Source of the DNA: an uncultured Acidobacteriota bacterium
Lineage (GTDB): Bacteria; Acidobacteriota; Vicinamibacteria; Vicinamibacterales; CAVVIG01
Direction: 5' to 3'
Assembly (NCBI GenBank): GCA_963780685.1
Contig: CAWACZ010000017.1
Span: forward strand, 320,563-384,562
DNA: 64,000 bases
The position numbers were made by a program, and so were the translations under genes. The notes beneath the pieces are model-generated. The model was not told where the DNA came from. It worked only from the letters and a program-made list of their open reading frames with translations, and ran no database searches. Of the stretch, positions 10,101 to 64,000 are shown one piece after another (within the stretch, counting starts at the first letter, position 1; each line of letters begins with the position of its first letter).

Positions 10101-10229
10101 TGGAATCGGTACGGGGAGAGCAGGGAGCGTGCCGGCGGTCCCAATGCATCGCCCCAACCGCATCGCGTCCTTTACGGCGGGTTGACTGACGGCCGATCGG
10201 CTGTGCCAGGTCGCCGGTTCCTGATGTGC

Positions 10230-10264
10230 CTCCGCGAGACCGGAGTCCCTCCGAAATGCCGTGC
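10230..10264. promoter_or_regulatory. tandem palindrome element, copy 1 (candidate bEBP enhancer site)
   Basis: CTCCGCGAGACCGGAG tcc CTCCGAAATGCCGTGC. Lies in the divergent intergenic region between the STAS-like and DUF4136 genes. Confidence 0.4.
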
Positions 10265-10327: not shown

Positions 10328-10343
10328 CGGCGTGACAATTGCA
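10328..10343 (+). promoter_or_regulatory. candidate sigma-54 -24/-12 promoter
   Basis: CGGCGTGACAATTGCA. GG (10329-30) and GC (10341-42) have GG-N10-GC spacing and the -12 TTGCA is perfect. 65 bp downstream of copy 1 and 52 nt upstream of the ATG at 10395. Confidence 0.35.
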
Positions 10344-10394
10344 CCACCGCTCTTGATCCGAGGTCAAGGCCGTCACCCGAAAGGAAAGGTAGAT

Positions 10395-11003: not shown

Positions 11004-12659
11004 TTATGGGAGCTTCGGCCGCGACAGCCCCAGTTTGGCCATACGCGTCTCGAGGGTGGTGGGCCTGAGCCCGAGTCGGTCTGCCGCCCCACCCGATCCG
11101 CGAATGCGCCAGCAAGTGCTCTCCAGGACGCTGCGGATATGCTCTTTCTCGACGTCCGTCAGCTTGACGCTGCGTTTTCCAGCAACAGGCGAGGGCGTCG
11201 GTACGGCAATGGTCAGCCGAGTGCCGGTCGTGACGATCATGGCGCGCTCCACGACATTGCGCAGCTCGCGAATGTTGCCTGGCCATGAATACGCTTGCAG
11301 CGCGGCCATACTCTCCCTGGGGATGGCCTCGATCCGTTTGCCGAACGCATTCGAGAATGCTTCGACGAAGCGCCACACGAGAATGGGGATGTCTTCGACG
11401 CGATCCCGTAGCGGAGGCACCATGATGGGGAAGACATTGAGCCGGTAGAACAAGTCCTCGCGAAACGCTCCGTCGGCGATCCGTTGCTCCAGATTCCGGT
11501 GCGTGGCCGCAATGATTCGCGTGTCCACGCGAATACTTTTTGGGCTGCCGAGCCTCTCGATTTGGCGCTCCTCGAGCACGCGTAGTAACTTGACCTGGGT
11601 TTCGACTGGCAGATCGCCGACCTCGTCGAGGAAGATGCTCGAGTGGTCCGCCAGCTCGAATCGTCCCACCTGACGGGCGAGGGCGCCTGTAAACGCGCCC
11701 TTCTCCCGGCCGAACAACTCGCTCTCCATGAGCGTGGAAGGAATCGCGGAGCAGTTCACGCGCACCATCGTGCGCCCGCGCCTCGCGCTCAGCTCATGGA
11801 TCTGCGCGGCAAAGAGCTCCTTGCCGGTTCCGGTCTCACCAAGCAGCAGCACCGTCGAGTCGGTGGCCGCCACCTGCTGCACCTGTTCCAGGACTCGGCG
11901 GACGGCTGCGGTCTCTCCGACGATGTTGCCGGTGCCAAGACGATCCTGGGCTTCGCGCCGGAGGTACAGGTTCTCGGCCCGCAACTGGTCGCGCAACCGT
12001 TCCACTTCCGCGAGCGTGTTTTGGAGCGCTTCGTCGCCTTGCCGGCGTGCCAGAACGTTCCCGAAGGCCGTGGCGAACACCCGAAGGCGATGCACCTCCT
12101 CCGGACGCCACGTGCGTTCCCGGCGCACCATGTTGAAGCCGACCGCGCCCACCACCCGGCCGTCAACGGACAGAGGCACCGTCACGGAGGACCTTGTGCC
12201 GAACGACTCGCACGCGGCGCGGTCGATTGGGTTCGGAATGTCATCGACCCTCGAGAAGCTCACCACGCCACCGGCGAGCAGGGTCTCGAGCGCCCACGGA
12301 AAGCGCTCCCTGGCCGAAGTCGGCGCCGCGACCGGCGCGATGCCAGGACTCTCCCAGCTCACCGGGGCCACCAGCATGCCGTCCGGCTGAATCCTGAAAA
12401 AAATACAGCCGTCGAGACCCAGGGCTTCGCCAATCTGTCGAAGGGCCGCTCGAATCGCTCCGTCGACCTGGTCGACGGGCAGGTTGATGAACTGCACCGA
12501 CAACTCGGCGACGACCCGCTCGAGCTCCAGTTGCCCCTGCAATCTGAGGTGGTTTGTCTCTTCGAGGTTGGGGAAGGACTCGGCAAGACGATGCAAGTGC
12601 TGGCGATCGAGCGCGATCTGACCAAATCGAGTCGCGGGCGATTCGGCTAACTCAGGCAT
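11004..12659 (-). CDS. sigma-54-dependent Fis-family transcriptional activator with GAF-like sensor domain
   Basis: N-terminal ~230 aa GAF-like region, [30 protein letters not shown] and WPGNIRELRNV. C-terminal HTH GGAADRLGLRPTTLETRMAKLGL. Confidence 0.9.
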   Translation of the reverse strand: MPELAESPATRFGQIALDRQHLHRLAESFPNLEETNHLRLQGQLELERVVAELSVQFINLPVDQVDGAIRAALRQIGEALGLDGCIFFRIQPDGMLVAPVSWESPGIAPVAAPTSARERFPWALETLLAGGVVSFSRVDDIPNPIDRAACESFGTRSSVTVPLSVDGRVVGAVGFNMVRRERTWRPEEVHRLRVFATAFGNVLARRQGDEALQNTLAEVERLRDQLRAENLYLRREAQDRLGTGNIVGETAAVRRVLEQVQQVAATDSTVLLLGETGTGKELFAAQIHELSARRGRTMVRVNCSAIPSTLMESELFGREKGAFTGALARQVGRFELADHSSIFLDEVGDLPVETQVKLLRVLEERQIERLGSPKSIRVDTRIIAATHRNLEQRIADGAFREDLFYRLNVFPIMVPPLRDRVEDIPILVWRFVEAFSNAFGKRIEAIPRESMAALQAYSWPGNIRELRNVVERAMIVTTGTRLTIAVPTPSPVAGKRSVKLTDVEKEHIRSVLESTCWRIRGSGGAADRLGLRPTTLETRMAKLGLSRPKLP

Positions 12660-12782: not shown

Positions 12783-12817
12783 CTCCGGCATCCCGGAGTA
12801 GGTCCGCCATATCGGAG
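12783..12817. promoter_or_regulatory. tandem palindrome element, copy 2 (candidate bEBP enhancer site)
   Basis: CTCCGGCATCCCGGAG tag GTCCGCCATATCGGAG. The first 16-mer has perfect palindromic arms. Lies between the GAF-bEBP gene and the DUF3302 operon. Confidence 0.45.
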
Positions 12818-12907: not shown

Positions 12908-12923
12908 TGGCATGGCGAGTGCT
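12908..12923 (+). promoter_or_regulatory. candidate sigma-54 -24/-12 promoter of the DUF3302-HlyD-OMF operon
   Basis: TGGCATGGCGAGTGCT. GG 12909-10 and GC 12921-22 (GG-N10-GC). Compare consensus TGGCACG-N4-TTGCW. 92 bp downstream of copy 2 and ~78 nt upstream of the start at 13001. Confidence 0.5.
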
Positions 12924-13000
12924 GTAGATCGAACTCCAATCATCGGGCGAAAGTGCTTCGGTCTGCGACCACCGTTCCTTGTTTCAGACACGATTAGGAT

Positions 13001-16530: not shown

Positions 16531-16565
16531 CCCCGGAATCCCGGAGTTCATCCGACATGCCGGAC
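16531..16565. promoter_or_regulatory. tandem palindrome element, copy 3
   Basis: CCCCGGAATCCCGGAG ttc ATCCGACATGCCGGAC. Lies inside a 570-nt non-coding gap. Confidence 0.4.
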
Positions 16566-16662: not shown

Positions 16663-16678
16663 TGGCAACCGCCGTGCA
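16663..16678 (+). promoter_or_regulatory. candidate sigma-54 -24/-12 promoter
   Basis: TGGCAACCGCCGTGCA. GG 16664-65 and GC 16676-77. 99 bp downstream of copy 3 and ~250 nt upstream of the ATG at 16926. Confidence 0.45.
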
Positions 16679-16925
16679 CTCCGCACGTCGCCGGGCGATG
16701 CTCCCTACAGGCACGTTCCACGAAGCACTGAACGTGAGTCTCGAGGTGATCCTCGGGTTTGGCCGAATCCGTGAAGAGTTGCCATGAGTCGGCGAGTGCG
16801 AAAGGTTCTGCTCTTTATAGTGAATGAAGAATAGAAGGAGAGCGCCAGTCATGAACATTGTCAAGTCGGTCACCCTCGTCGCACGCAGACCTGGAAACGT
16901 TTCGCATTCAGGCAGAGGAGGCTTC

Positions 16926-19621: not shown

Positions 19622-20605
19622 TTACGGCACCGTCGTCCAGGAGGCATCAGGATTGTAAAGGTTCATGGCCCGGGCTGCGGTATCGGTTTCGGGCCCCAGA
19701 TCTTTCTCGCGCACGATGCCGTCTTGATTGATCAGGAAGGTCATGACTCCCGTGACGTCGTACTGTGCCGGCCACGCGACGAGCGCGAACCCGCCGGACA
19801 TCTCACCCTTACTCATATAGTCCTTGGCCCCGCCAGCCGCGGCGGGTCCCTGCGCGGTCAGGATTCTGAAGTAGTAACCGTGAAAGGGCGAGGGCTGCTG
19901 GCGATCGACGCTTGGCGCCCGGCCTTCTTCCGCCGCTTGTGCCACCAGGTCACCCAACGGACTGCGTTTACGACCGTGCGCGGTCGGCCAATACAGACCG
20001 TTCTGCCGTCCCGGATCGCTACGAAAGGTCTTCGCATAGAGGCCCGCAGGCTTTCCATCGTGTCCCGTCTTCGCGTAGATCCGTTGTGCGGCCGCGAAGG
20101 TACGGCAGATTCCGATCACCGCCAGCTCGTTGCGCCCGATGCGGCGGGCGAGCACTTCTTCCTTTCCCGCCGCAGTGTCGAACCGCCAGCCATTCCCGTC
20201 TTTCACAAGAGGAACTGGAAAGGGCCAGTTCTCGTTGCCGATGACGAGCGCCTTGGCGTTGGTCCCCTGGTCCACCAGCTTCCATCCCTCGGCGACGGCG
20301 ACCGTGAAGACCTCGCGATTCCTGCGGCCGGTCGCCTGATCGGACGAGGCGACCAGATCCCGCCCGTCAGGACCGAGGATTGCCAACAGCTCGTCCATGG
20401 TTCCCGTTTTGACGACCTCCGTCAGTGCTTTCACCGCGTCTTCCGGCGTTGCGAACATGCGCTGGCGCGGTTCCGAGGGAGTTCTGGTGCATGCCGGCAT
20501 CGCCACCAGTGTCGCGCAAATGACGGCGGCCAGATTGCGAGCCACGCGGCCGCGTGTTGTGCCAGGTCGATCTGTTGCCACGGCGGTCCTTATTACGTCC
20601 TTCAC
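19622..20605 (-). CDS. DUF2950-family protein
   Basis: WPFPVPLVKDGNGWRFDT, RIGRNELAVIGICRTFAAAQRIYA, GLYWPT, FHGYYFRILTAQG and GGFALVAWPAQYDVTGVMTF are hallmark DUF2950 stretches. Confidence 0.75.
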   Translation of the reverse strand: MKDVIRTAVATDRPGTTRGRVARNLAAVICATLVAMPACTRTPSEPRQRMFATPEDAVKALTEVVKTGTMDELLAILGPDGRDLVASSDQATGRRNREVFTVAVAEGWKLVDQGTNAKALVIGNENWPFPVPLVKDGNGWRFDTAAGKEEVLARRIGRNELAVIGICRTFAAAQRIYAKTGHDGKPAGLYAKTFRSDPGRQNGLYWPTAHGRKRSPLGDLVAQAAEEGRAPSVDRQQPSPFHGYYFRILTAQGPAAAGGAKDYMSKGEMSGGFALVAWPAQYDVTGVMTFLINQDGIVREKDLGPETDTAARAMNLYNPDASWTTVP

Positions 20606-20618: not shown

Positions 20619-21821
20619 TCAGCGGCGCCGCCCGCCCGAGCTGCTCCTGCTGCTTTTCCCGCGCGAGCTGGCCGCGCGTTCCGATTTTCCGCTCGAATAG
20701 CCCGAGAATGCATCTGAGCTGGTGCCGGATCGTTCGCGAGTGGCCTGAGTCTTGTCGCCACTGTACCCGCGTGATTCAGCGCTGGAGCCGCCCGAGCTCT
20801 TCGCCTGGGTCGCCCTGGCCTGGGCCTCGGTGCTCCGCTGCTCGCGCTGCGCCTGCGACTCGGGGCGGTTTTCCTGCCGGTTCTCCTGCCGATCGGTGCG
20901 CTGCTCTTGCGCCGTGCCCGCACGGTCGCCCCGTTCCTCTGCCACATCTTCGCGGCGCTCGCCCCGCTCCTCGGTCAGATCCTCGCGGTGGTCCTGCCAG
21001 TCATCTCGGGCATCCTCGCGGGCATCGGACCAGTCGTCCCACGCGTCGTCGTACATGTAGAAGCCGCCGTGCCACCCATAGGGACCGTAGTAGTAGTTGT
21101 TGTCCATCGCCGCGCCAATCGCGATGCCCGCCGTGAATCCGATCAAACCCGCCACGGCTGCATCGGTGCTACTGCTACTTTCCTGCTGGATCACCACCGT
21201 TGTCGAAGTGGGCTGGGTGTAAACGACCTGCGGGTTGTATTGCGGTACATAGACGACCTGCGGGTTGGCCGGCTCGATCACGATCACCTGCTGGCCACTC
21301 GACGTGGTCTTGGTCTCGACGTCCTGCTGCGGGGTGCTCTTCAGGGTTCCGGCGTTCCGGGCTTGAGTCCTCAGCCGCTGAATGCTGGCGAAGACACCGC
21401 TTCGATCGGTCGTGAACGCCTGCCCGAGGCGGGTCGTCCAATCCAGCTGCTCCGCCATCATGCTCACGACCTGGGGAAACAGAACCAGGGCGACGAAACT
21501 CGGGTCGAACCCCGATTTCGTCGCGGCATCCTGAAGGTCGGTGCCTTTCAGCGTCTGATTGCTTGCCAGCCATTCGTTGAGCGCGCCCACTTTCCCGGGA
21601 TTCGACGCGCACTGCAGCATCTGTGCGAGAAGCTGGTCCGGATAGAGAGCAATGGGCGCGAGCAGGCGATCGAGCGCGTCCGGCGTCAGGGCTGGCTTGG
21701 CGGCCTTCGGGGCGGGGGTTTGCGGCGCGGACTGTGCCCGCGCCCCCAATCCGCCCAGAAGCGCCGGATCAAGCGCAGCGAGGACGAGCATCACGTTGAC
21801 GGCAAGGATCAGCTTCTTCAT
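20619..21821 (-). CDS. DUF3300-family secreted protein with disordered Arg/Ser/Glu-rich tail
   Basis: Start set at the Met at 21821 (signal peptide MKKLILAVNVMLVLAAL). LDRLLAPIALYPDQLLAQMLQCASNPGKV is the DUF3300 signature. Tail ends SSGGRRR. Confidence 0.75.
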   Translation of the reverse strand: MKKLILAVNVMLVLAALDPALLGGLGARAQSAPQTPAPKAAKPALTPDALDRLLAPIALYPDQLLAQMLQCASNPGKVGALNEWLASNQTLKGTDLQDAATKSGFDPSFVALVLFPQVVSMMAEQLDWTTRLGQAFTTDRSGVFASIQRLRTQARNAGTLKSTPQQDVETKTTSSGQQVIVIEPANPQVVYVPQYNPQVVYTQPTSTTVVIQQESSSSTDAAVAGLIGFTAGIAIGAAMDNNYYYGPYGWHGGFYMYDDAWDDWSDAREDARDDWQDHREDLTEERGERREDVAEERGDRAGTAQEQRTDRQENRQENRPESQAQREQRSTEAQARATQAKSSGGSSAESRGYSGDKTQATRERSGTSSDAFSGYSSGKSERAASSRGKSSRSSSGGRRR

Positions 21822-21905: not shown

Positions 21906-22002
21906 GAGGCGCGACTGGATAGCGCGAAGTGAGAAGCGGCGCAATTCGAACAATTTGACGAGGGTTTAACCGCCGCCGCCAGGGTCGATATCATGACGTT
22001 AG

Positions 22003-22038
22003 CTCTCCCCGGCCGGAGTTTCCTCCGAATTGCCGGAT
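22003..22038. promoter_or_regulatory. tandem palindrome element, copy 4 (most degenerate, 4-nt spacer)
   Basis: CTCTCCCCGGCCGGAG tttc CTCCGAATTGCCGGAT. Confidence 0.3.
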
Positions 22039-23839: not shown

Positions 23840-23847
23840 AAGTTCGA

Positions 23848-26055: not shown

Positions 26056-26155
26056 CTGTACCTCCGAGTGCTAGCGCATGTAGAACTGTCCGGACGGATG
26101 GTTCGATCCGTGGATGTTCTGGTGGCAGTTCATGCACGATCGTCCGAACATCCGG

Positions 26156-49101: not shown

Positions 49102-51054
49102 CTAGGCGTGGCCCGGACGCCTGAGCCCGAGCTTCGCCAGGCGCGTCTCGAGTGTGGTGGGCTTCAGCCCGAGGCGTTCGGCCGCCCCTCCGCGTCCCCG
49201 GATTCGCCAGCCTGTGCTTTCCAGAACGTCGCGAATGTGTTCCGTCTCCACATCGACCAGTTTCGAGCTGCGCCTGGCCGCGGCCGCTGATGGCAGCGGC
49301 ACCGCGATTGTCAGTCGCTTGTGCGTCGACCCGATCATCGCGCGTTCCACGACATTGCGGAGCTCGCGGATGTTGCCAGGCCAGGGATACCGCTGCAAGG
49401 CTGCGAGGCTGTCCTTGTCGATCGATTCGATCCGCTTGCCGAATGCTTTGGAGAACTCGTCCACGAAGTGCCAGACCAGCAGCGGGATGTCCTCTACGCG
49501 TTCCCGCAACGGTGGTATGTGAATCGGGAACACGCTCAGTCGGTAATAGAGATCCTCTCGGAACAGCCCCTCCGAAATCCGCTGTTCCAGATTGCGATGC
49601 GTCGCTGCGACGATTCGCGTGTCCACCGTAATCGGCCGCGGGCTTCCCAGCCGCTCGATCTGTCGCTCCTCGAGCACGCGCAGCAGCTTCACCTGGACGT
49701 CGGGTGGCAGATCGCCCACTTCATCGAGAAAGATCGTCGAATGATTGGCCAGCTCGAATCGGCCCACCTGTTGCGATAACGCTCCAGTGAATGCGCCTTT
49801 CTCTCGTCCGAACAGCTCGCTTTCGATGAGCGTCGCGGGGATCGCCGCACAGTTCACTCGCACCATCGCCCGGCCGTGCCGCGCTCCAAGCTCGTGGATC
49901 TGCGTCGCGAACAACTCCTTGCCCGTGCCGGTCTCCCCAAGCAGCAGGACCGTCGAGTCGGTCGCAGCCACTTGCTCTATCTGCTCGAGCACCCGGTGGA
50001 CGGCTTCGCTCCTCCCCACGACGCGCGTCAAGCCCAACCGCTCGCGCGCTTCCCGCCGCAGGGACACGTTTTCCACCTGCAGTTCGTCCTTGAGGCGCCG
50101 CGCTTCCACCGTTGCTGCCCGAATGACCTGGTCCCGCAGCTGCCGCGCCAGGACCTGGCCGAACACACTCGCGATCACTCTGAGCCGGTGTACCGCTTCT
50201 GGCAGCCACGGCCGCTCCGTGTGGATGGCGTCGAAGCTCAGGACGCCTGCCACGCGACCGTCAACCAACAGAGGGATGGCCACTGCCGCCTTGATCTGGA
50301 GCGCCCGGCAGGCGTCGCGGTCGATCTCATTCGGAATCTCGGCGAGGGTCGAAAACAACGCCATCTCGCCCGTGACGATGCGGTCGATCGCCCACGGGAA
50401 GCGCGTCTTCAACGGCACAGGGGCGTCCAGCGGTTGAATTTCAGGCGCCGTCCAACTCACGGGATCGACCAGCACGCCATCCGGCCCGAGCCGGTAGAAC
50501 GTGCTCCGATCGAGACCGAGCTTTTCGCAGGTCCGGCGCAGCCCGCTGCGAATCGCCTCGTTGACCTGGCCGGCTGGAAGGTTGATGAACTGGCTCGATA
50601 ACTCGGCAACGACGCGCTCGAAGTCGAGCTGCTCCGCGAGCGTTGCGCGCTGCGCCTCTTCCGACCTGCGGCGCTCGGCAATGTTCACGATGGACGCGAG
50701 CACGAAGAGGCCATCCCTCGTGGGAATCGGATTCAGCCCGATCTCGACCGGAATCTGGGAGCCGTCTTTACGGCGTCCGAAAAGCTCACGACCGGCGCCC
50801 ATTTGCCGCGACTCTGGCATGCGCGCAAAGGCTTGCCGATGCACTGCGTGAGCGTGGCGCTGTGCCTCGGGTACCAAGACATCCACTGTCTGGCCGACGA
50901 GCTCCTCGCGCGCATAGCCGAACTGTCGTTCCAGCTCGCGATTGACGAGCACAATCGTCCCGTGCGGGTCCACCACCAGGATGCTGTTCGGCGACGCCTC
51001 GATTGCGAGCTCAAACGTTTCCGCCAAATCGAGGCCGGAATCGGCCACTTTCAT
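49102..51054 (-). CDS. sigma-54-dependent Fis-family activator with PAS and GAF-like sensor domains
   Basis: PAS (SPNSILVVDPHGTIVLVNRELERQFGY), GAF-like region, [21 protein letters not shown] and WPGNIRELRNV. HTH GGAAERLGLKPTTLETRLAKLGL. Clear paralogue of 11004..12659. Confidence 0.9.
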   Translation of the reverse strand: MKVADSGLDLAETFELAIEASPNSILVVDPHGTIVLVNRELERQFGYAREELVGQTVDVLVPEAQRHAHAVHRQAFARMPESRQMGAGRELFGRRKDGSQIPVEIGLNPIPTRDGLFVLASIVNIAERRRSEEAQRATLAEQLDFERVVAELSSQFINLPAGQVNEAIRSGLRRTCEKLGLDRSTFYRLGPDGVLVDPVSWTAPEIQPLDAPVPLKTRFPWAIDRIVTGEMALFSTLAEIPNEIDRDACRALQIKAAVAIPLLVDGRVAGVLSFDAIHTERPWLPEAVHRLRVIASVFGQVLARQLRDQVIRAATVEARRLKDELQVENVSLRREARERLGLTRVVGRSEAVHRVLEQIEQVAATDSTVLLLGETGTGKELFATQIHELGARHGRAMVRVNCAAIPATLIESELFGREKGAFTGALSQQVGRFELANHSTIFLDEVGDLPPDVQVKLLRVLEERQIERLGSPRPITVDTRIVAATHRNLEQRISEGLFREDLYYRLSVFPIHIPPLRERVEDIPLLVWHFVDEFSKAFGKRIESIDKDSLAALQRYPWPGNIRELRNVVERAMIGSTHKRLTIAVPLPSAAAARRSSKLVDVETEHIRDVLESTGWRIRGRGGAAERLGLKPTTLETRLAKLGLRRPGHA

Positions 51055-51691: not shown

Positions 51692-51708
51692 GTGCAGCAG
51701 ATGTACCG
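51692..51708 (-). promoter_or_regulatory. candidate sigma-54 -24/-12 promoter
   Basis: Minus strand reads CGGTACATCTGCTGCAC (GG-N10-GC). 87 bp from palindrome copy 5 and ~38 nt upstream of the Met at 51644. Confidence 0.35.
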
Positions 51709-51793: not shown

Positions 51794-51828
51794 CTCCGGC
51801 ATCGCGGAGACCCTCCGGAATGCCGGAG
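51794..51828. promoter_or_regulatory. tandem palindrome element, copy 5 (best-conserved copy)
   Basis: CTCCGGCATCGCGGAG acc CTCCGGAATGCCGGAG. Lies in the divergent region between the bEBP operon and the atp operon. Confidence 0.45.
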
Positions 51829-51924: not shown

Positions 51925-51940
51925 TGGCATGCGCCGTGCT
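51925..51940 (+). promoter_or_regulatory. candidate sigma-54-like -24/-12 element in front of atpB
   Basis: TGGCATGCGCCGTGCT (GG 51926-27, GC 51938-39). Closely resembles the elements at 12908 and 16663. 98 bp from copy 5. Overlaps the alternative GTG start (51924) of the listed atpB ORF. Confidence 0.3.
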
Positions 51941-51962
51941 GCAGAGCGGGCGCGGCATCGAC

Positions 51963-52820
51963 ATGAACGGCTTCGCCATCATCTGTCTTGGCTTCTTCGA
52001 ACAAGCGGAACAACACGGCTTGTCGCAGAAGGCGGTCGAAATCGCCAAGCCCTGGGGCTTTCCGATCACGAACTCCATGGTCGTCACCTGGATCGTGGCC
52101 TTGGGCCTGATCGTCTTCGCCCAAGCCGCGACACGCCGCATGGCACAAGTGCCCAGTGGGGCGCAGAACCTTTTGGAATGGCTCGTCGAGGGACTGTACG
52201 GCCTTCTCGAGAGCATCATTGGCCCACATCTGGTCAAGCGGACGTTCTGGTTCTTTGCGACGATCTTCATCTTTATTCTCGCCGCCAATTGGGTCGGCCT
52301 TGTCCCGGGCGTCGGCACGATCGGATGGGGCCACCAGACGCCAGAGGGTTTCAGGATCGACCAACCGTTGTTCCGCGGCGCGAACGCCGATCTCAACCTG
52401 ACGCTGGCCATGGCCCTGGTGTTCTTTGCGTGCTGGATCGTCTGGGCGCTTCAGGAAGCGGGTCCGCGCGGCGTGCTGAAGGAGCTATTCGCACCGAAGG
52501 GAGACACGACGGGTTTCTTGCGAGTGCTCATGATTGTCGTGTTCTTCGCCGCCGGTTGTCTGGAGATCGTCTCGATTCTGTTCCGCCCGGTGTCGTTGAG
52601 CTTTCGGCTTTACGGCAACATCTTCGCGGGCGAGAACATGCTGGAGGCCATGGCGACGATCGTTCCTGGCCTCGGCTGGATGTTGCCGATACCGTTCTAT
52701 TTCATGGAGCTGTTGGTCGGCCTGGTCCAGGCGATGGTGTTCATGCTGTTGACCGCCGTCTTCACGCTCCTCATCTGTCAGCACCACGAGGAAGCTGGGT
52801 CTGCGGCCGTGCACGGCTGA
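51963..52820 (+). CDS. atpB: F0F1 ATP synthase subunit a
   Basis: ITNSMVVTW, LSFRLYGNIFAGE (conserved Arg) and multiple TM helices. Start is ATG 51963 or GTG 51924. Confidence 0.85.
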   Translation: MNGFAIICLGFFEQAEQHGLSQKAVEIAKPWGFPITNSMVVTWIVALGLIVFAQAATRRMAQVPSGAQNLLEWLVEGLYGLLESIIGPHLVKRTFWFFATIFIFILAANWVGLVPGVGTIGWGHQTPEGFRIDQPLFRGANADLNLTLAMALVFFACWIVWALQEAGPRGVLKELFAPKGDTTGFLRVLMIVVFFAAGCLEIVSILFRPVSLSFRLYGNIFAGENMLEAMATIVPGLGWMLPIPFYFMELLVGLVQAMVFMLLTAVFTLLICQHHEEAGSAAVHG

Positions 52821-52861
52821 AGTCGGGGAAGAGTGGGAGGGAGCGGCGTGGGGCGTGGGGT

Positions 52862-52943
52862 CCCCGCAAGCGACCGAGCCGGCCGCCTTCGCGCCGTAGG
52901 CGCTTCGGCGAGCCTCGCCGTAGCTCGAAGAGCAGAGGCGGGG
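52862..52943. repeat. second type of structured palindromic element (outer stem CCCCGC/GCGGGG with inner hairpins)
   Basis: CGCC-ttc-GCGCC-gta-GGCGC-ttc-GGCG and GCTC-gaa-GAGC hairpins, enclosed by CCCCGC (52862-67) and GCGGGG (52938-43). Lies in the atpB-atpE spacer. Confidence 0.55.
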
Positions 52944-52980
52944 GGTTTGGGGCAGAGGCCATTTAGAAAGGACTACTCCG

Positions 52981-53166
52981 ATGATTGGAAGTTTGCACGT
53001 CGGCCTGGCAGCTCTGGGCGCCGCCATCGGCGTTGGATTGATCGGGATGGGAGCGTCGACGGCGGTCGGACGAAATCCCGGCGCGTCCACGAAGATCATG
53101 GTCCAGTCGATTCTGGCCATTGCCTTCGCTGAAGCGATCGTGTTTTACGCGCTGTTTCTCTTGTAA
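52981..53166 (+). CDS. atpE: F0F1 ATP synthase subunit c
   Basis: 61-aa two-helix proteolipid with a GRNPG loop and conserved carboxylate (AFAEAIVFY). Confidence 0.9.
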   Translation: MIGSLHVGLAALGAAIGVGLIGMGASTAVGRNPGASTKIMVQSILAIAFAEAIVFYALFLL

Positions 53167-53232
53167 TAGACGGAGCGTTCCTGGGCACCGCCACGCGATG
53201 GCGCCGCCCGGGGACGAAGCGAGTTCGCAATC

Positions 53233-53775
53233 ATGCATCCTCTAGCGCTGCAGGTCGTGGCGGAGGGCGGCGGACGACTCGAACAGGTCGCCCGCACGTT
53301 CGGGGTCGACTGGCCTCATCTGGCGGCCCAGATGGTCAGCTTCGGGATCGTTTGCGTCGTGCTGTATGCGCTCGCGTACAAACCGATCCTCCGGATCCTC
53401 GAGGCCCGTCGCCAGCAGATCGCCAGCGGTCTGGCCAACGCGCAGAAGATCGAGGCGCAGTTGGCCCGAATCGAAGTCGACCGTCGGGATGTGCTGACGA
53501 AGGCCGGCGCAGAGGGGAAGCAATTGATTGAGGAAGCCCGTGCGGCGGCCGCGCGCGTCCAGGCGGAAGAAACCCGGAAGGCCATGGCTGCCGCCGAACA
53601 GATTCTCGTCCGAGCCCGCGAGGCCGCCGAACGGGACCGCGCGCACATGTTGGCCGAACTCAGGCGCGAGGTTGGCCGGCTCGTTGTCCAGACGACGGCA
53701 TCGGTGACGGGCAAGGTCTTGACGACCGAGGATCACCGTCGCCTGGCCGAGGAGACCGCCAGGCAGCTGGGATGA
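53233..53775 (+). CDS. atpF: F0F1 ATP synthase subunit b
   Basis: One N-terminal TM helix, then a long Ala/Arg/Glu-rich helix. Position between atpE and atpH. Confidence 0.8.
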   Translation: MHPLALQVVAEGGGRLEQVARTFGVDWPHLAAQMVSFGIVCVVLYALAYKPILRILEARRQQIASGLANAQKIEAQLARIEVDRRDVLTKAGAEGKQLIEEARAAAARVQAEETRKAMAAAEQILVRAREAAERDRAHMLAELRREVGRLVVQTTASVTGKVLTTEDHRRLAEETARQLG

Positions 53776-53778
53776 GCC

Positions 53779-54171
53779 ATGAAAACGACCAGAAGAACCA
53801 GGCAGGCCGCGCGACAACTGTTCCGATTGTGTCTGGTCGATCAAAGGCTGAATGGCGACCGCGTCAGACTGGTTGCGGGGCGGCTCGCCGAATCCAAACG
53901 CCGTGGTTCGCTGGCCGTGCTCTCGGATTTTCGGCGGATGGTCAGATTGGAACGGGATCGGCACAAAGCGGTCGTTGAAACCGCCACGACTCTGGCGGAC
54001 GACCTGCGAAGCGGGGTCCAGGCGGACTTGGCGCGCGTCTACGGCCCTGGGCTCGAAACCTCGTTCGAGCAGAACCCGGGACTGATCGGGGGGATGCGTA
54101 TCAAGGTCGGCAGCGACGTTTATGACGGCAGCGTGCGGGCCAGGCTGGCGGCGATCGAGTCGCGCTTGTGA
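53779..54171 (+). CDS. atpH: F0F1 ATP synthase subunit delta (short, 130 aa)
   Basis: C-terminal OSCP-like motif NPGLIGGMRIKVGSDVYDGSVRARL. About 50 aa shorter at the N-terminus than typical delta subunits. Confidence 0.7.
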   Translation: MKTTRRTRQAARQLFRLCLVDQRLNGDRVRLVAGRLAESKRRGSLAVLSDFRRMVRLERDRHKAVVETATTLADDLRSGVQADLARVYGPGLETSFEQNPGLIGGMRIKVGSDVYDGSVRARLAAIESRL

Positions 54172-54257
54172 TTGCAGCGGGTGCACGCGTCCGGCATCGA
54201 AACGCGCGACGCGACCATCGAGTGAGCGCGCGGTGGGTGAGTTGCGCGTTCGTTGGC

Positions 54258-54321
54258 GTAGCGCAGGCCTTTCAGGGCTGCTTGTCCGTCGGGCGCCGGC
54301 AGGCCTAAAGGCCTGCGCTAC
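54258..54321. repeat. REP-like structured palindromic element, copy 2
   Basis: GTAGCGC-[GCAGGCC tttca GGGCTGC]-linker-[GCAGGCC taaa GGCCTGC]-GCGCTAC. Lies in the atpH-atpA spacer. Confidence 0.85.
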
Positions 54322-54386
54322 GTTAAGCGGGCGGCTACATAAGCGGGCGGCGTCAACGAAGGCCTCCCGGGATTAGGTAGGAACAC

Positions 54387-55922
54387 ATGGCCGACCTGGT
54401 GCAGGAAATAGAAGCCCAAATCGCCGGAGCGAAGGCCGCGACCGCCAAGCAGTCCGTGGGCCTCATTCGCGAGATTGGCGATGGCGTCGCCCGAGTCGAG
54501 GGCCTTGGTGACGTGATGCTCAACGAGATGCTCGACTTCGGGCACGGCATCACAGGCCTGGCCCTGAATCTCGACGAGACCGAGGTCGGCGTGATCATTC
54601 TGGGCGACTACACACAGCTCGAGGAGGGCGGGGAAGTCCGAGGGACCGGAAAACTCCTCCAGGTGCCCGTCGGCAAGGGCCTGCTGGGTCGTGTCGTCAA
54701 TACGCTCGGTGAGCCTCTCGATGGCAAAGGTCCCATCGCCAGCAGCGTCGCCTATCCGGTCGAAAAGCTCGCCCCCGGGATCATCCGGCGGCGCCCGATC
54801 GGGCAGCCGGTTCAGACGGGCATCATGCCGATCGACGCCATGATCCCGATCGGCCGCGGGCAGCGGGAGCTCATCATCGGCGACCGTTCCACGGGCAAGA
54901 CGACGATCTGCATCGACACGATCCTCAGTCAGGCTCGTCTAAATCAGGCGGCCGAAGCGGCCGGCGACACGAGCTATCGACCGCTCTATTCCATCTACGT
55001 GGCGATCGGCCAGAAGCAGTCCACGATCGCTCAGATCATCACGATTTTGGAAGAAGCGGGGGCGATGCCCTACAGCATCATCGTCGCATCGCCTGCGGCG
55101 GATTCCGCGACCAGTCAGTACCTGGCGCCGTTTGCCGGTGCGGCGATGGGCGAGTGGTTCATGGACAACGGCATGGACGCGCTGATCGTGTACGACGACT
55201 TGTCCAAGCACGCCGTCGCCTACCGTCAGGTGTCTCTCGTCTTGAAACGGCCGTCGGGTCGGGAAGCCTACCCAGGAGACGTGTTCTACCTGCACAGCCG
55301 GCTGCTCGAGCGAGCCGCGCGCGTCGGCGAACAATACGGCAATGGTTCCCTCACGGCGCTGCCGATCATTGAGACACAGTCCGGAGACGTATCCGCGTAC
55401 ATCCCCACCAATGTCATTTCGATCACGGACGGACAGATCTTCCTGGAAACCGACCTGTTCTACCAGGGGATCCGCCCCGCCATCTCGGTTGGCATCTCGG
55501 TGTCTCGTGTGGGATCGGCAGCACAGCTCAAGGCCATGAAGCAGGTCGCCGGACAGCTCAAAGGTGATCTCGCGCAGTTTCGGGAGCTGGCGGCGTTTGC
55601 ACAGTTTGGATCCGAGCTGGATGCCGCAACACAGGCGAAGATCGACCGTGGCAAGCGCATTGTCGAACTCTTCAAGCAGTCCCAGTACAGTCCGGTTCCG
55701 GTCGAGGTCCAGGTCGGGGTGATCTGGGCGGTTCAAAACGGGTACGTGGATGATGTGCCGGTCGAACGCATCAAGGAATTCCAAGCCAGCTGGACCGACT
55801 TCCTGATTACGCGTAAGGCCAGCGTGCTGGAGAAAATCGTAGCGGAGAAAGCGCTGAGTGAGCCATTGACGGCGGAGTTGAAGAGCGCTGCCGATCAATT
55901 CAAACAGACGTGGAAGAAATAG
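54387..55922 (+). CDS. atpA: F0F1 ATP synthase subunit alpha
   Basis: [10 protein letters not shown]-loop and a typical alpha-subunit sequence throughout. 511 aa. Confidence 0.95.
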
Positions 55923-56053
55923 TTCTCAGCTGTCAGCTCTCAGCTGCCAGTGGAAGCAACAAGACGGTCGAAGGCCAAGAACTGAAAAGCTGACCGTTTG
56001 ATAGCTGAGAGCTGAAAACTGAGGGAGCCGACAGCTGACAGCTGAAAACTGAT
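55923..56053. repeat. heptamer-based spacer: (YTNYCAG)x4, then (CTGRRRR) units running up to the atpG ATG
   Basis: TTCTCAG CTGTCAG CTCTCAG CTGCCAG at 55923-55950. CTGAGAG CTGAAAA CTGAGGG ... CTGACAG CTGAAAA CTGAT-ATG at 56005-56056. The two blocks are partly complementary (for example AGCTCTCAGCT / AGCTGAGAGCT). Confidence 0.85.
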
Positions 56054-56921
56054 ATGAACTCCCCCCGCGATCTTCGCAGACGCATCAAGTCCATCAGCGG
56101 CACGGCGCAAATCACCAAAGCCATGCAGATGGTGGCGGCGTCGAAGATGCGCAAGGCTCAGCAGGCCGCTATCGCCACCGCGCCATTTGCGCGGCTGTTG
56201 TACCGCATCCAGCGCCGCGCGACCACACGGGTACGCGACTTCTCGCATCCGCTGATGCAGGTGCGCGACGTCCGCACGCGCGCGGTGATCCTGATCGCGG
56301 CCGACAAGGGTCTCTGCGGGGCGCTCAACACCAACGTCTTCCGCATCGCCGCACAGTTCGATCCCGAATCGACGATCTTCATCACCGCCGGGCGCAAGGC
56401 CGCGCAGTTCGTCGCCCGCACGCGGCGGCGGCTGGCCGCCGAATTCGCCTACGGCGATTCGCCGACGTTTCCCGAGGCCAGAGCGATTGCCGGCTTCGCG
56501 GGCGACCTCTTCCTGAAGGGAGAGGTGGACCAGGTGCAGATCGTCACCACGCGTTTCGTGAACACCCTCACACAAGAGCCCGTCTCGATGGAGTTTCTGC
56601 CAGTGGGGACGATCGCTGGGATGAAGGTCGTCTGGAGCGGAATCCGAGGAGACCTTGGCTGCTGACACGGCGGAGACGGTGTTCGAACCCAGCGCTGAGG
56701 CGGTTCTGGGGTATATGGTCGGGCGCTATCTGAACATTTACATCTACTACATCTTGCTGAGTGCCAAGGCCAGCGAGCAGAGCGCTCGCATGGTGTCGAT
56801 GAAGAACGCGACCGACAGCGCCGAAAGCCTGATCAAGGACTTGACGCTCGAGTACAACAAGCTGCGTCAGGGCAACATCACGAGGGAATTGCTGGAGATT
56901 GCAGGCGGCCAGGCGGACTGA
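56054..56921 (+). CDS. atpG: F0F1 ATP synthase subunit gamma, frameshifted as assembled
   Basis: N-terminus RRRIKSISGTAQITKAMQMVAASKMRKAQ and C-terminus ARMVSMKNATDSAESLIKDLTLEYNKLRQGNITRELLEI lie in different frames (listed ORFs 56054..56665 and 56655..56921). The shift is near 56628-56634. Confidence 0.9.
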
Positions 56922-56945
56922 GAGCTGAGGGCTGAGGGCTGAGGA
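56918..56945. repeat. heptamer array (CTGAGRG)x4 incorporating the atpG TGA stop
   Basis: CTGAGAG CTGAGGG CTGAGGG CTGAGGA, read directly. Confidence 0.9.
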
Positions 56946-56959
56946 TGGTATGAGTGTGT

Positions 56960-57044
56960 GAAGAAATCGCTGTAGCGCAGGCCTTTCAGGCCTGCTTTGT
57001 CGGGCAGCCCTAAAGGGGCTGCGCTACATCAGTGCGATTTCTTC
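56960..57044. repeat. REP-like element copy 3, flanked by 11-bp inverted repeats (MITE-like unit)
   Basis: GAAGAAATCGC (56960-70) ... GTAGCGC-[GCAGGCC tttca GGCCTGC]-linker-[GCAGCCC taaag GGGCTGC]-GCGCTAC (56972-57027) ... GCGATTTCTTC (57034-44). Confidence 0.85.
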
Positions 57045-57064
57045 TGAGAGCTGAGAGCTGAGGA
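57044..57064. repeat. heptamer array (CTGAGAG/CTGAGGA)x3 just upstream of the atpD ATG
   Basis: CTGAGAG CTGAGAG CTGAGGA, then cgtt-ATG. The last unit provides a GAGGA SD. Confidence 0.9.
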
Positions 57065-57068
57065 CGTT

Positions 57069-58470
<1,402 letters not shown>

Positions 58471-58544
58471 CTGATACTGAAAACTGATAGCTGAAAACTG
58501 ATAGCTGGTAGCTGGAAGCTGGAAGCTGGAAGCTGGTAGCTGAT
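58471..58544. repeat. heptamer array (CTGRWAG)n, ~10 units filling the whole atpD-atpC spacer
   Basis: CTGATAC TGAAAA CTGATAG CTGAAAA CTGATAG CTGGTAG CTGGAAG x3 CTGGTAG CTGAT-ATG. Confidence 0.9.
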
Positions 58545-58955
58545 ATGGCCGAGACCCTCAAGCTGGAAATCGTGACGCCGGAGGCAACGGTCTTCTCCGA
58601 AGACGTGAACCTGGTCACCTTGCCGGGCGTCGAGGGGCAGTTCGGCGTGTATCCTCGGCACGTCCGACTGATTACTCAAGTGGTGCCCGGTGAGATCATC
58701 GTGCTCAAAGACGGCCAGGAGAGATTGCTCGCCGTCGGTGAAGGGCTCGTGGAGATTGACAGCGATCATGTGGCGATCGTGACCGATATGGCCGTTCCCG
58801 CGGAGAAGGTCGACGAGGCCAAGGCCGAAGAGGCGCGCGCACGCGCTGAGGCGCGGCTTGGCGAGAAGATCTCCGACGAGGAAGTGGCGTCCGTCAACGC
58901 GTCGCTCGCCCGATCCCTGGCGCTGCTGCAGGTGAAGCGGCGTCGACGGATGTGA
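58545..58955 (+). CDS. atpC: F0F1 ATP synthase subunit epsilon
   Basis: 136 aa. LKLEIVTPEATVFSEDVNLVTLPGVEGQFGVYPRH is a typical epsilon N-terminal beta-sandwich, followed by a helical C-terminus. Confidence 0.9.
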   Translation: MAETLKLEIVTPEATVFSEDVNLVTLPGVEGQFGVYPRHVRLITQVVPGEIIVLKDGQERLLAVGEGLVEIDSDHVAIVTDMAVPAEKVDEAKAEEARARAEARLGEKISDEEVASVNASLARSLALLQVKRRRRM

Positions 58956-60797: not shown

Positions 60798-60832
60798 CTC
60801 CGGGATTCGGGAGCCCCTCCGGTCCCGCGGAG
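60798..60832. promoter_or_regulatory. tandem palindrome element, copy 6
   Basis: CTCCGGGATTCGGGAG ccc CTCCGGTCCCGCGGAG. Lies in the 340-nt gap upstream of pta. Confidence 0.4.
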
Positions 60833-60934
60833 TGCCTTCTAGGGCGCGGCCACACCTGACACGGGCGTGCATATCGGTCAAACCCTTAGAATTCTGATAG
60901 TTCGGTGGTGTCCGTCCGTGTGCGGCGCGGTCAG

Positions 60935-60950
60935 AGGTACGTGCCTTGCT
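60935..60950 (+). promoter_or_regulatory. candidate sigma-54 -24/-12 promoter of pta-ackA-pflB
   Basis: AGGTACGTGCCTTGCT (GG 60936-37, GC 60948-49). The 16-mer GGTACGTGCCTTGCTC is identical to the minus-strand element at 21889..21905. 104 bp downstream of copy 6. An IHF-like TCAA-N4-TTA lies at ~60876-60888. Confidence 0.45.
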
Positions 60951-61086
60951 CGGAACCGAAGCAATCCGGCAGTCACGGTGGTGCTCTGCTAGGCGACAGC
61001 GTCGCATGTCTCGTTTTCACTCTTCTCTTGAAAGAGACGGGACCGGCGGTACGGCCGGCGGCCCCGGCAGTAGTGGGTGACACGCC

Positions 61087-62028
61087 ATGACTCGACAATC
61101 CGGAACGGGAAAGTACGAGCAGCTCCTGGAGAGGTGTCGAAGCCTGGAACCGATACCGACCGCCGTGGCGCATCCGTGCGAAGAGACGGCGTTGGCCGGC
61201 GCCCTCGAGGCGGCCGAGCAGGGATTGATTGCGCCGATTCTCGTGGGCCCGGCAGCCAGGATCGACGAAGTCGCGAAGAAAAGCGGGATCGACCTGGGGC
61301 GAACCCGGATCGTCGATGCTCCCCACAGCAATGCCGCAGCGGCCAGGGCGGTGGAGCTGGTTCGTCAGGGGGAGGCCGATCTTCTGATGAAGGGGAGCCT
61401 GCACACCGACGAGCTCTTGAGCGCAGTCGTTTCGAGGGAAAAAGGCCTGCGCACGGGACGCCGCCTCAGTCACGTGTTCATCATGGACGTTCCGACCTAT
61501 CACAAGGTCCTGATCGTCACCGACGGTGCGATCAACATCGCGCCGACTCTCGAAGACAAGGTCGACATCTGCCAGAACGCCATCGACCTGGCGGTTGCTC
61601 TCGGCGTCGAGCGACCAAAAGTTGCGATTCTCGCCGCTGTCGAGACAGTGACTTCCAAGATGCCGGCCACTATCGACGCCGCCGCCTTGTGCAAGATGGC
61701 CGAGCGAAAACAGATCACCGGCGCAGTCTTGGACGGCCCCCTGGCGTTCGACAACGCGATCAGCAAGGAGGCGGCGAAAACGAAGGGCATCGCGTCGGAG
61801 GTTGCCGGCGATCCCGACATTCTTCTCGCGCCGGACCTCGAGGCGGCCAACATACTGGCCAAGCAGCTCACCTTCCTCGCCAACGCTGACAGTGCTGGTC
61901 TCGTCCTCGGCGCACGCGTGCCGATCATCCTGACGAGCCGCGCCGACAGCGTTCGCTCGAGGATCGCCAGCTGCGCAGTGGCGATGCTTGCGGCCCATAC
62001 GCGGCAACGATCGCTTCAACGAGCGTAG
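61087..62028 (+). CDS. pta: phosphate acetyltransferase/butyryltransferase (short PTA_PTB type)
   Basis: 313 aa. LLMKGSLHTDELL, VLIVTDGAINIAPTLEDK, GPLAFDNAIS and PDLEAANILAKQL motifs. Immediately upstream of ackA. Confidence 0.8.
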   Translation: MTRQSGTGKYEQLLERCRSLEPIPTAVAHPCEETALAGALEAAEQGLIAPILVGPAARIDEVAKKSGIDLGRTRIVDAPHSNAAAARAVELVRQGEADLLMKGSLHTDELLSAVVSREKGLRTGRRLSHVFIMDVPTYHKVLIVTDGAINIAPTLEDKVDICQNAIDLAVALGVERPKVAILAAVETVTSKMPATIDAAALCKMAERKQITGAVLDGPLAFDNAISKEAAKTKGIASEVAGDPDILLAPDLEAANILAKQLTFLANADSAGLVLGARVPIILTSRADSVRSRIASCAVAMLAAHTRQRSLQRA

Positions 62029-62052
62029 GGAAAGATTTCGGAGTTCATCGGA

Positions 62053-63249
62053 ATGAACGATTACGCCGTCGGTACTCAATGCTGGTTCGTCGAGCCTCAA
62101 GTTCTGCGTCTATGGACGGTCGGAGATCGGGCCTTGGCGACTGGAAGCGCGGGGCCAGATCGAGGGCATCGGGACCGCACCGCGGCTCTCGGCCAGGGAC
62201 GGCGAGGGTGAGCGCCTTCACGATCAATCGCTGGACGGCACAGTGCACGATGGCCGCACGGCGTTGGATTCTCTGGCCGCGTGGCTCCGGTCCAGGTACG
62301 GCGGTGCGCGTGTGCTCGGTGTGGGCCACCGCGTCGTCCATGGCGGTGCGCGATTCACAGGTCCCACGATTATCACGCCGGAAGTGTTGGGGGAGCTGCG
62401 AAAGCTGGTGCCCCTGGCTCCGCTTCACCAGCCGCACAACCTGGCGGCGATTGACGCGGTCGCCGAGCGGCTTCCCGCCGTTCCCCAGGTCGCCTGCTTC
62501 GACACGAGCTTTCATCGCGGTCAGCCGGCTGTCGCCGAAGTGGTTCCACTGCCCCGCGAGATTCGCGATTCCGGGTACAGCGGTACGGCTTCCACGGCCT
62601 GTCGTACGAATACATTGCCTCAGTGCTGCCGCAAGTTGCGCCGGAGATTGCCGGCGGCCGCGTGATCGTCGCTCACCTGGGAAGCGGCGCCAGTCTCTGT
62701 GCCCTGAAGGACCGGAAGAGCGTTGACAGCACACTTGGATTCACTGCCCTCGATGGCCTCTGCATGGGGACGCGGCCCGGCGCGCTCGATCCCGGGGTTG
62801 TCCTGTATCTTTTTCAGGGCCTTGGCCTCTCTGCCAAGGACGTGGAGACGATTCTCTATAAGAAATCGGGCCTGCTCGCCATATCCGGCATCAGCAATGA
62901 CATGCGCGACCTGATCACCAGCCCCGATCCAGCCGCCCGGCTGGCCGTCGACTACTTTGTCTATCGCGCGGCCAAAGAGATCGGCGCCCTTGCCGCCGTA
63001 TTGGGTGGGATCGACGGACTGGTCTTCACCGCCGGGATCGGCGAGAACTCCGCCGAGATCCGAAGCCGGATCTGTGAAGCCTCCGGATGGCTCGGCATCC
63101 AACTGGACACGGAGGCGAACCGAGCGAAGGGGCCGCGGATCTCTCGAGCAGACAGTCGGGTGTCGGCCTGGGTGATCCCAACGAACGAAGAGCTCGTGAT
63201 CGCCCGCCATACAGGCGCGTTGCTCGGGTTGGTGGAAGCGCACGCTTAG
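62053..63249 (+). CDS. ackA: acetate kinase, two frameshifts as assembled
   Basis: ATG 62053 (MNDYAV). After ~62070 the conserved [11 protein letters not shown]...GHRVVHGG...FDTSFH continues in the next frame. After the GGG run at 62573-75, [22 protein letters not shown]...[10 protein letters not shown] returns to the first frame (listed ORFs 62243..62665 and 62623..63249). Confidence 0.9.
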
Positions 63250-63273: not shown

Positions 63274-64000
63274 ATGGCTGTAACCGTAACGCAGGAAAAA
63301 GGCGCAGCAGGGGCGACTTCGCCGTGGCAGGGGTTCCAGACCGGCCTCTGGCAGACGGAGATCAACGTCCGGGACTTCATCCAGCAGAACTACACGGAGT
63401 ACGACGGAGACGAGTCGTTTCTCGCGCCCGCCACCGAACGCACCAAGAAAGTCTGGGGCAAGCTCACAGAGCTGTTCGTCGAGGAACGGCGCAAGGGAGT
63501 CCTCGATGTGTCTCAGATCCCCAGCTCCATCACGGCGCATGCGCCAGGCTACATCGACCGCGAGAACGAGGTCATCGTCGGCCTGCAGACGGACGCCCCG
63601 CTCAAGCGCGCGATCATGCCGAACGGCGGATTCCGAATGGTCGCCACTGCACTGAAAACGTATGGCTACGAGCCCGATCCTCATGTGGTGGAGGCGTTCA
63701 CGAAGTATCGCAAGACGCACAACGAGGGTGTGTTCGATGCGTACACAGCCGACGTGAGGCGCTGCCGCAGTTCGCACATTCTCACCGGGTTGCCCGATGC
63801 TTACGGCCGTGGCCGGATCATCGGCGACTATCGCCGCGTTGCCCTCTATGGGGTGTCACGACTCATCGAGCACAAAGAACAGGAAAAGTCCGCGCTCGAT
63901 TCGGCCCAATCGACCGACGACATCATCCGCGATCGGGAAGAGCTGGGCGAACAGATCCGCGCGCTCAAAGAACTGCAGAAGATGGCGTCGAATTACGGCT
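63274..64000 (+). CDS. pflB: formate C-acetyltransferase (pyruvate formate-lyase), N-terminal 242 codons; runs off window
   Basis: My translation from ATG 63274 (GAAGGAG SD at 63261-67): WQGFQTGLWQTEINVRDFIQQNYTEYDGDESFLAP...GLQTDAPLKRAIMPNGG...YRKTHNEGVFDAYT...LTGLPDAYGRGRIIGDYRRVALYG. This closely parallels the E. coli PflB N-terminus. Not in the ORF track because there is no stop in the window. Confidence 0.9.
   Translation, partial: MAVTVTQEKGAAGATSPWQGFQTGLWQTEINVRDFIQQNYTEYDGDESFLAPATERTKKVWGKLTELFVEERRKGVLDVSQIPSSITAHAPGYIDRENEVIVGLQTDAPLKRAIMPNGGFRMVATALKTYGYEPDPHVVEAFTKYRKTHNEGVFDAYTADVRRCRSSHILTGLPDAYGRGRIIGDYRRVALYGVSRLIEHKEQEKSALDSAQSTDDIIRDREELGEQIRALKELQKMASNYG

Follow-up and report, generated by a model that had tools for sequence, protein, structure and literature searches.

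Identical 16-nucleotide boxes upstream of pta-ackA-pflB and DUF3300-DUF2950 as probable sigma-54 promoters of one enhancer-controlled regulon in a Vicinamibacterales genome

The 16-nt word GGTACGTGCCTTGCTC occurs twice in the stretch of DNA analysed here (the window, 64,000 nt of contig C17 of an uncultured Acidobacteriota bacterium), once upstream of pta-ackA-pflB and once upstream of the DUF3300-DUF2950 gene pair. We consider it highly probable (roughly 0.85) that both copies are sigma-54 (RpoN) dependent -24/-12 promoters belonging to a single enhancer-controlled regulon that is clustered on this contig. The members of this regulon would most likely include pta-ackA-pflB(-pflA), DUF3300-DUF2950, the operon of the activator itself, the F1Fo ATP synthase and several exported or membrane proteins. 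It is the position, geometry and conservation of the 16-mer pair, not the identity of the two copies, that carry its significance.

The two boxes and the genes behind them

The first-pass annotation, which reported the identical 16-mer at two loci, placed both copies correctly in its text, its header range of 60935-60950 being one base low. The boxes and the genes that they face are as follows.

60936..60951, plus strand: predicted sigma-54 -24/-12 box A, GGTACGTGCCTTGCTC, before pta-ackA-pflB; predicted transcription start site (TSS) near 60961
60990..61086, plus strand: pta leader, the remnant of an MFS transporter gene's 3' end
61087..62028, plus strand: pta, phosphate acetyltransferase, the first gene behind box A
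62045..63249, plus strand: ackA, acetate kinase, with its reading split over two or three frames
63274..64000, plus strand: pflB, pyruvate formate-lyase, cut by the end of the window; pflA is next in the genome
21889..21904, minus strand: predicted sigma-54 -24/-12 box B, identical to box A; predicted TSS near 21879
20619..21821, minus strand: DUF3300 gene, first behind box B
19622..20605, minus strand: DUF2950 gene, second behind box B

Both boxes have the form GG-TACGTGCCTT-GC, with the two dinucleotides exactly 10 nt apart, which is the GG-N10-GC spacing noted earlier for the two copies. When they are compared with the extended consensus TGGCACG-N4-TTGCW, the GG, A, C, G and TTGCT positions match, and the only deviations are a T in place of C at the third -24 base and the missing T before GG (a and g are found instead). 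Box A sits between the stop codon of a SulP/STAS transporter gene (60743) and the pta ATG at 61087, 135 nt downstream of the box, and box B sits between a gene for a NapC/NirT-type multihaem cytochrome and the DUF3300 ATG at 21821, 67 nt downstream. A check of the 16-mer positions against start codons, proposed with the first-pass annotation, thus finds both copies intergenic and directed at the next gene. Neither intergenic region contains a sense-oriented sigma-70-like promoter. We considered a structured RNA or riboswitch in the leaders and rejected it, since in both intergenic regions the Rfam matches were at noise level only, with no credible family.

In relatives, an MFS transporter gene often lies between the promoter module and pta (at locus L004, for example, the MFS gene spans 1748-3004 and pta starts at 3001). 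The comparison indicates that this transporter has been deleted in the present genome, its last codons remaining as the pta leader, and that the deletion put the promoter directly before pta. In DNA-level alignments of the intergenic regions to relatives, conservation extends no further than the pta leader. The strand that encodes DUF3300 also carries, immediately upstream of this gene, a porin-cytochrome cluster (22079-27130) that consists of an MtrB/PioB-like barrel (23848-26055), two multihaem cytochromes (26156-27130 and 22079-23446) and a monohaem cytochrome c (23456-23821).

The two copies in the window are also the only ones in the genome (7,860,917 bp, 17 contigs, 63% G+C), a metagenome-assembled one that is assigned to Vicinamibacterales by the relatives of Pta and DUF3300. 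No one-mismatch variant occurs anywhere in these 7.86 Mb, and of the four two-mismatch variants found genome-wide, three lie inside called genes. A REP- or MITE-like dispersed repeat is ruled out as the origin of the 16-mer by these counts, in agreement with the earlier view that it is not part of a larger dispersed repeat. The expectation for this word is 0.07, a value valid only for a word chosen in advance; when the window is simulated with a Markov-3 model, 7.4 16-mers of whatever sequence recur on average, and about a dozen dispersed repeats of this length are seen in the actual window. Because some seven chance repeats of this length are expected per window, the exact identity is by itself weak evidence, and we rejected it as a significant observation in its own right. 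Even between sigma-54 promoters, the identity over 16 of 16 positions is somewhat surprising and unexplained: the probability that two independent draws are identical over 16 nt is 5e-6 under the genome-wide promoter matrix and 1e-4 under the regulon matrix, and 0.004-0.06 identical pairs are expected from these matrices. The identity is rarer than the promoter matrix predicts, and therefore some factor besides the sigma-54 constraint may act on the box. We regard the match as an after-the-fact coincidence or a very short convergence, while such an extra constraint is conceivable.

Enhancers, further modules and conservation in relatives

About 100 bp upstream of each 16-mer we find an enhancer-like element of about 35 bp, in which four alternating CTCCG/CGGAG half-sites follow each other at intervals of about 10 bp. 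In other words, the element consists of two adjacent 16-bp palindromes, CTCCGG-N4-CCGGAG twice. An A/T-rich block lies between the enhancer and the box at both loci.

60798..60832, plus strand: putative enhancer (upstream activating sequence, UAS) A, CTCCGGGATTCGGGAGCCCCTCCGGTCCCGCGGAG, centre at about -146 from the predicted TSS; HMM E = 1.3e-5
60876..60902, plus strand: A/T-rich TCAA-N4-TT block (IHF-like) between enhancer A and box A, at about -72
22005..22038, minus strand: putative enhancer (UAS) B, ATCCGGCAATTCGGAGGAAACTCCGGCCGGGGAG, centre at about -142 from the predicted TSS; HMM E = 0.012
21934..21960, minus strand: A/T-rich TCAA-N4-TT block (IHF-like) between enhancer B and box B, at about -68

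The flanks of the two 16-mers had been described as unrelated. This is true of the adjacent bases and fails about 100 bp upstream, where enhancer and A/T block are common to both loci at matching distances. A role of IHF at the A/T block is possible, and the genome has three genes of the HU/IHF family.

An enhancer HMM trained exclusively on sequences from other genomes (cut-off E < 0.05) detects nine sites in the genome. Seven of these are within 60 kb of contig C17, including those upstream of both 16-mers. Among the further copies listed next, D, F and G have sigma-54-like boxes at the same distance as A and B.

51794..51828: enhancer C, CTCCGGCATTCCGGAGGGTCTCCGCGATGCCGGAG, a perfect 35-bp palindrome and the best copy, between the operons of a sigma-54 activator (bEBP) and of ATP synthase; E = 2.9e-6
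51692..51707, minus strand: predicted sigma-54 box C(-), GGTACATCTGCTGCAC, preceding genes for a 191-aa exported protein and a PAS-GAF bEBP
51926..51941, plus strand: sigma-54-like box C(+), GGCATGCGCCGTGCTG, directed at the F1Fo ATP synthase operon
10230..10263, no strand assigned: enhancer D, E = 2.9e-6, with boxes on both sides
10118..10133, minus strand: canonical sigma-54 box D(-), GGCACGCTCCCTGCTC, preceding a SpoIIAA-like gene (9720-10091) and a gene for an 804-aa protein
10329..10344, plus strand: sigma-54-like box D(+), GGCGTGACAATTGCAC, preceding a DUF4136 gene
12783..12817, plus strand: enhancer F, E = 7e-4
12909..12924, plus strand: sigma-54-like box F, GGCATGGCGAGTGCTG, preceding a DUF3302/HlyD operon
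16531..16565, plus strand: enhancer G, a weaker copy, E = 0.014
16664..16679, plus strand: sigma-54-like box G, GGCAACCGCCGTGCAC

The third GGTAC-type box mentioned in the first-pass annotation is present as box C(-), and it is accompanied by the best enhancer copy. Enhancer C is common to the bEBP operon and to the divergent ATP synthase operon, which is complete (a, c, b, delta, alpha, gamma, beta, epsilon; 51926-58955); sigma-54 control of an ATP synthase operon, if real, would be unusual. Within this operon a 19-20-nt word, GTAGCGCAGGCCTTTCAGG, is repeated at 54257-54276, 56972-56990 and 54307-54322, once in inverted orientation, and arrays of a 14-mer and of a 7-mer (GCTGGAA) lie between atpD and atpC (58477-58535). 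A further short tandem repeat, an array of the 7-mer CTAGAGG, is found at 2639-2705. Site E (C17:390337-390372), outside the window, combines a good enhancer with an irregular box region. The sole enhancer copies outside contig C17 are at C11:64394-64436 and C11:70869-70904, the latter being followed by the box GGTACGCGGTCTGCAA and then by a gene whose product is exported, Pro/Ala-rich and 280 aa long. The form GGCAy-N5-GTGCTG/C is common to four of the regulon's boxes (12909-12924, 51926-51941, C17:390.4 kb on the plus strand and C11:64.5 kb), which make up a sub-class distinct from the GGTAC-N5-yTGC boxes, and the bidirectional enhancers C and E have one class on each side.

We then consider the same arrangement in other genomes. 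Among the fetched loci of relatives, which are phylogenetically non-independent in such counts, 12 pta loci and 5-6 DUF3300 loci have an enhancer with a sigma-54-like box behind it, and all of these modules are oriented towards the gene, with none in the opposite direction. Over 203 fetched loci from other genomes, 18 boxes lie 100-139 nt downstream of 59 oriented enhancer instances, as compared with 0.23 expected per 20-nt bin. The orthologous boxes include the following.

pta, same-genus genome G002: GGCACGCACTTTGCCA, with canonical GGCAC
pta, L003: GGAACGCACCTTGCTC
pta, L012: GGCGCGGACCTTGCTC
pta, L034: GGCATGGTGTCTGCTC
DUF3300, G002: GGTACGCTCTCTGCAA
DUF3300, L096: GGCACGTCGCTTGCCT
DUF3300, L086: GGCACATCGCTTGCGT
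DUF3300, L083: GGTGCGTGGATTGCTT

GG, TGC and the spacing are constant among these boxes, the constancy of GG and GC arising partly by selection because the pattern used to pick sites partly presupposes them. C, T and A all occur at the third position, and the boxes differ exactly at those positions where sigma-54 permits it. The T before GG is present in 2 of 24 aligned modules. The variation among orthologous promoters speaks against a lineage-specific -24 code and likewise against a second factor that reads the whole 16-mer.

Sigma-54, the GGTAC form and candidate activators

The genome has one rpoN gene (C10:141397-142800), with a canonical RpoN box (ARRTIAKYRE) and a canonical helix-turn-helix (HTH). 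In the assembly its reading is split over two frames. The same is seen for ackA (62045-63249), atpG (56054-56921) and atpD (57069-58470), each of which is read in at least two frames with all parts present, and because these genes are broken likewise we take the break in rpoN to be an assembly indel. This suggests that all four frame breaks are indel errors of a long-read assembly and that the genes are not pseudogenes. At least 35 full-length bEBP genes are found in the genome, three of them inside the window. The earlier proposal of sigma-54 promoter geometry before pta-ackA-pflB and DUF3300-DUF2950 is supported by the rpoN gene, by these activator genes and by the classical spacing between enhancer and box. 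It is further supported in that orthologous loci retain the module and that neither intergenic region shows a sigma-70-like promoter.

Several counts bear on the status of GGTAC. Gene calls for these box statistics came from a crude purpose-made script, according to which 6.3% of random positions are non-coding, at most 300 nt upstream of a gene and in the sense orientation. Genome-wide, the fraction of sites in such upstream-sense non-coding DNA is 24/66 for GGCAC-N5-TTGC, 8/25 for GGTAC-N5-TTGC and 10/46 for GGAAC-N5-TTGC, and 5/55, the background level, for GGGAC-N5-TTGC. When every GG-N10-GC site upstream of a gene is entered into a two-component EM, the matrix obtained resembles that of sigma-54, comprises about 97 sites and favours TTGC[T/A]C, with a third base of C at.55, T at.27, A at.16 and G at.02. 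Among 720 validated promoters in a curated table, raw substring counts, made with no position matrix, are 283 for GGCAC, 161 for GGCAT, 23 for GGTAC, 26 for GGTAT, 40 for GGAAC and 8 for GGGAC (PMC12316311); GGGTACCAATCTTGCTT from Desulfomicrobium is an example of the GGTAC type (PMC12316311).

GGTAC is a known minority form of the -24 element, somewhat commoner in this genome, and the sequences indicate normal variability of the least constrained -24 base and no new recognition code. We rejected an altered specificity of sigma-54, as the RpoN box is canonical. The suggestion that GGTAC might be a lineage-specific -24 variant is opposed by this box, by the GGTAC and GGTAT forms among curated promoters and by the orthologous promoters of relatives, which show GGCAC, GGTAC, GGAAC, GGCGC or GGCAT at the same place. 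The alternative suggestion, a different factor recognising the 16-mer, does not fit the lack of conservation, at orthologous promoters, of the positions that sigma-54 does not need.

Two genes in the window are the main candidates for the activator.

49102..51054, minus strand: bEBP of 650 aa, PAS-GAF-AAA+(sigma-54 interaction)-HTH_8, the second gene behind box C(-)
11004..12659, minus strand: paralogous bEBP of 551 aa, GAF-AAA+-HTH_8, 67% identical to the bEBP at 49102-51054, with a nearly identical HTH

These PAS-GAF and GAF AAA+ HTH_8 paralogues are most likely the activators of the regulon, and the first is apparently autoregulated from box C(-). A third paralogue (C17:395188-396747) is 70% identical to the bEBP at 11004-12659; together with site E it lies just past the end of the window (about 69.8-76.2 kb in window coordinates), after pflB-pflA. 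Two or three paralogous activators with near-identical HTHs may share one type of enhancer. A short bEBP of 361 aa (5736-6821) has the AAA+ and lid domains only, and Pfam finds in it neither a sensor domain nor HTH_8. The orthologues of the 49102-51054 bEBP at loci L120 and L121, which are 71% identical to it, have an enhancer and a counterpart of box C(-), GGTACGTCTGCTGCAA, before the same small upstream gene. A first strict scan of the loci of activator orthologues gave few modules, and in a relaxed reading the L120 and L121 loci show the enhancer with one half-site changed.

The distribution of enhancer and activator among genomes is consistent with this assignment. Nine of 60 relatives have three or more enhancer matches, and a full-length activator orthologue is present in 7 of these 9 as against 1-3 of the 51 others (Fisher p = 7e-7 to 1e-5); because the thresholds were chosen post hoc and the genomes are related, we treat this co-occurrence as supporting evidence and not as proof. 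The activator gene lies next to the enhancer in four genomes (G002, G004, G023 and G026).

Mechanism, alternative explanations and implications

In the proposed mechanism, sigma-54 RNA polymerase would wait as a closed complex on the GG (-24) and GC (-12) elements, and a bEBP would oligomerise on the tandem-palindrome enhancer of about 35 bp, centred some 142-146 bp ahead of the predicted TSS. The A/T-rich TCAA-N4-TT block would probably be bound by IHF, with the DNA bent, and ATP hydrolysis by the activator would open the promoter. The analysis demonstrates sequence, geometry, conservation and co-occurrence, and from these we infer the transcription start, the sigma-54 dependence, the binding activator, the role of IHF and the signal. 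A response to anoxia or energy limitation, suggested by the gene content and the PAS/GAF sensors, is speculation.

The known sigma-54 -24/-12 promoters, such as glnAp2, nifH and pspA (TGGCACG-N4-TTGCW), resemble the sites described here in the GG-N10-GC spacing, the TTGCT, the A and C of the -24 element and the intergenic position, here 67-135 nt before a start codon, as well as in the enhancer about 100 bp further upstream and the presence of an rpoN gene and many activators. In contrast to consensus promoters, however, boxes A and B read GGTAC instead of GGCAC and lack a T ahead of GG, and their start sites are predicted; the Klebsiella nifH promoter has GGTAT. Enhancers of activators with a Fis-type HTH (NtrC, NifA, FhlA, NorR, ZraR) are also tandem palindromic UAS elements about 140 bp upstream with an intervening A/T block, and in such systems, as here, the activator gene lies beside its own enhancer, which apparently controls it, and some enhancers are bidirectional. 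To our knowledge, the half-site sequence CTCCGG-N4-CCGGAG matches no known enhancer. A functional parallel is the FhlA/formate regulon of E. coli, in which sigma-54 controls anaerobic formate metabolism: as here, a GAF-domain AAA+ activator is combined with sigma-54 and with genes of anaerobic mixed-acid metabolism. In E. coli, however, pflB, pta and ackA are sigma-70 genes, whereas the pta-ackA-pflB-pflA operon studied here carries a sigma-54 module, and the activator has PAS and one GAF domain. A literature search found no described sigma-54 regulon of Acidobacteriota. Thus, the regulon appears to be undescribed, in Vicinamibacterales, although the kind of system is not new.

We considered how the identity of the two boxes might be accounted for otherwise. 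The 16-mer could be a composite, in which a second sequence-specific factor, or a lineage-adapted sigma-54 with a preference for GGTAC, acts besides or instead of an ordinary sigma-54 box. Bases on which sigma-54 places no demand would then be read by the second factor or by a clade-specific feature of the holoenzyme. The rarity of the full identity under the promoter matrices would fit this, as would the frequency of GGTAC-type boxes in the regulon (A, B, C(-), E(-) and C11:70.8k), the 4-of-5 imperfect palindrome GGTACGTGCC and the rarity of T before GG in the modules; if it were true, pta-ackA-pflB and DUF3300-DUF2950 would be tied to each other more tightly than to the rest of the regulon. 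We nevertheless think it improbable, given that the positions left free by sigma-54 are unconserved at orthologous pta and DUF3300 promoters, that the pta and DUF3300 boxes of the same-genus genome differ from each other and are each 6 positions off this 16-mer, that RpoN box and HTH are canonical, and that the genome has neither further nor one-mismatch copies. It is also improbable, and slightly more so, that the identity reflects common descent or copy-correction, whether a promoter cassette was duplicated recently or the two promoters underwent short-patch gene conversion, with the function still being that of sigma-54. Modules A and B do have the same architecture at almost equal distances, and the recurrence of promoter sub-classes in the regulon (the four GGCAy-N5-GTGCTG boxes) hints at a proliferation of modules, but outside box and enhancer the similarity of A and B does not exceed that of random module pairs (z = 1.5, rank 53/190). 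Module A is closer to the pta module of L012 and module B to the DUF3300 module of L083, the bases directly flanking the 16-mer are unrelated, and both modules are older than the divergence of the compared genomes. A recent duplication or long-tract gene conversion between A and B is rejected on the unremarkable similarity of their spacers.

Finally, two unrelated 16-mers might coincide in a GC-rich window as a chance repeat with no promoter function. The number of repeats seen and expected in the window would allow this, but both copies are intergenic, face a gene, have GG-N10-GC and stand at a conserved distance from an independently detected enhancer, of which there are only 9 in the genome, and the arrangement is conserved in other genomes, so that such a coincidence is hardly credible. 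The reading that we prefer is that of two sigma-54 promoters within one enhancer-controlled regulon.

The 16-mer itself is thus ordinary, and its context is the more useful observation, as it helps to define a sigma-54 regulon of the abundant and little-studied soil Vicinamibacterales. The regulon offers at least nine promoters, an enhancer whose sequence is clear and PAS/GAF proteins as candidate activators, and it gives a regulatory context to DUF3300 and DUF2950, whose function is unknown. In this clade the -24 element may have C, T or A as its third base, which is relevant to promoter prediction in GC-rich genomes. The regulon also provides a testable idea of how nominally aerobic soil bacteria turn on fermentation.
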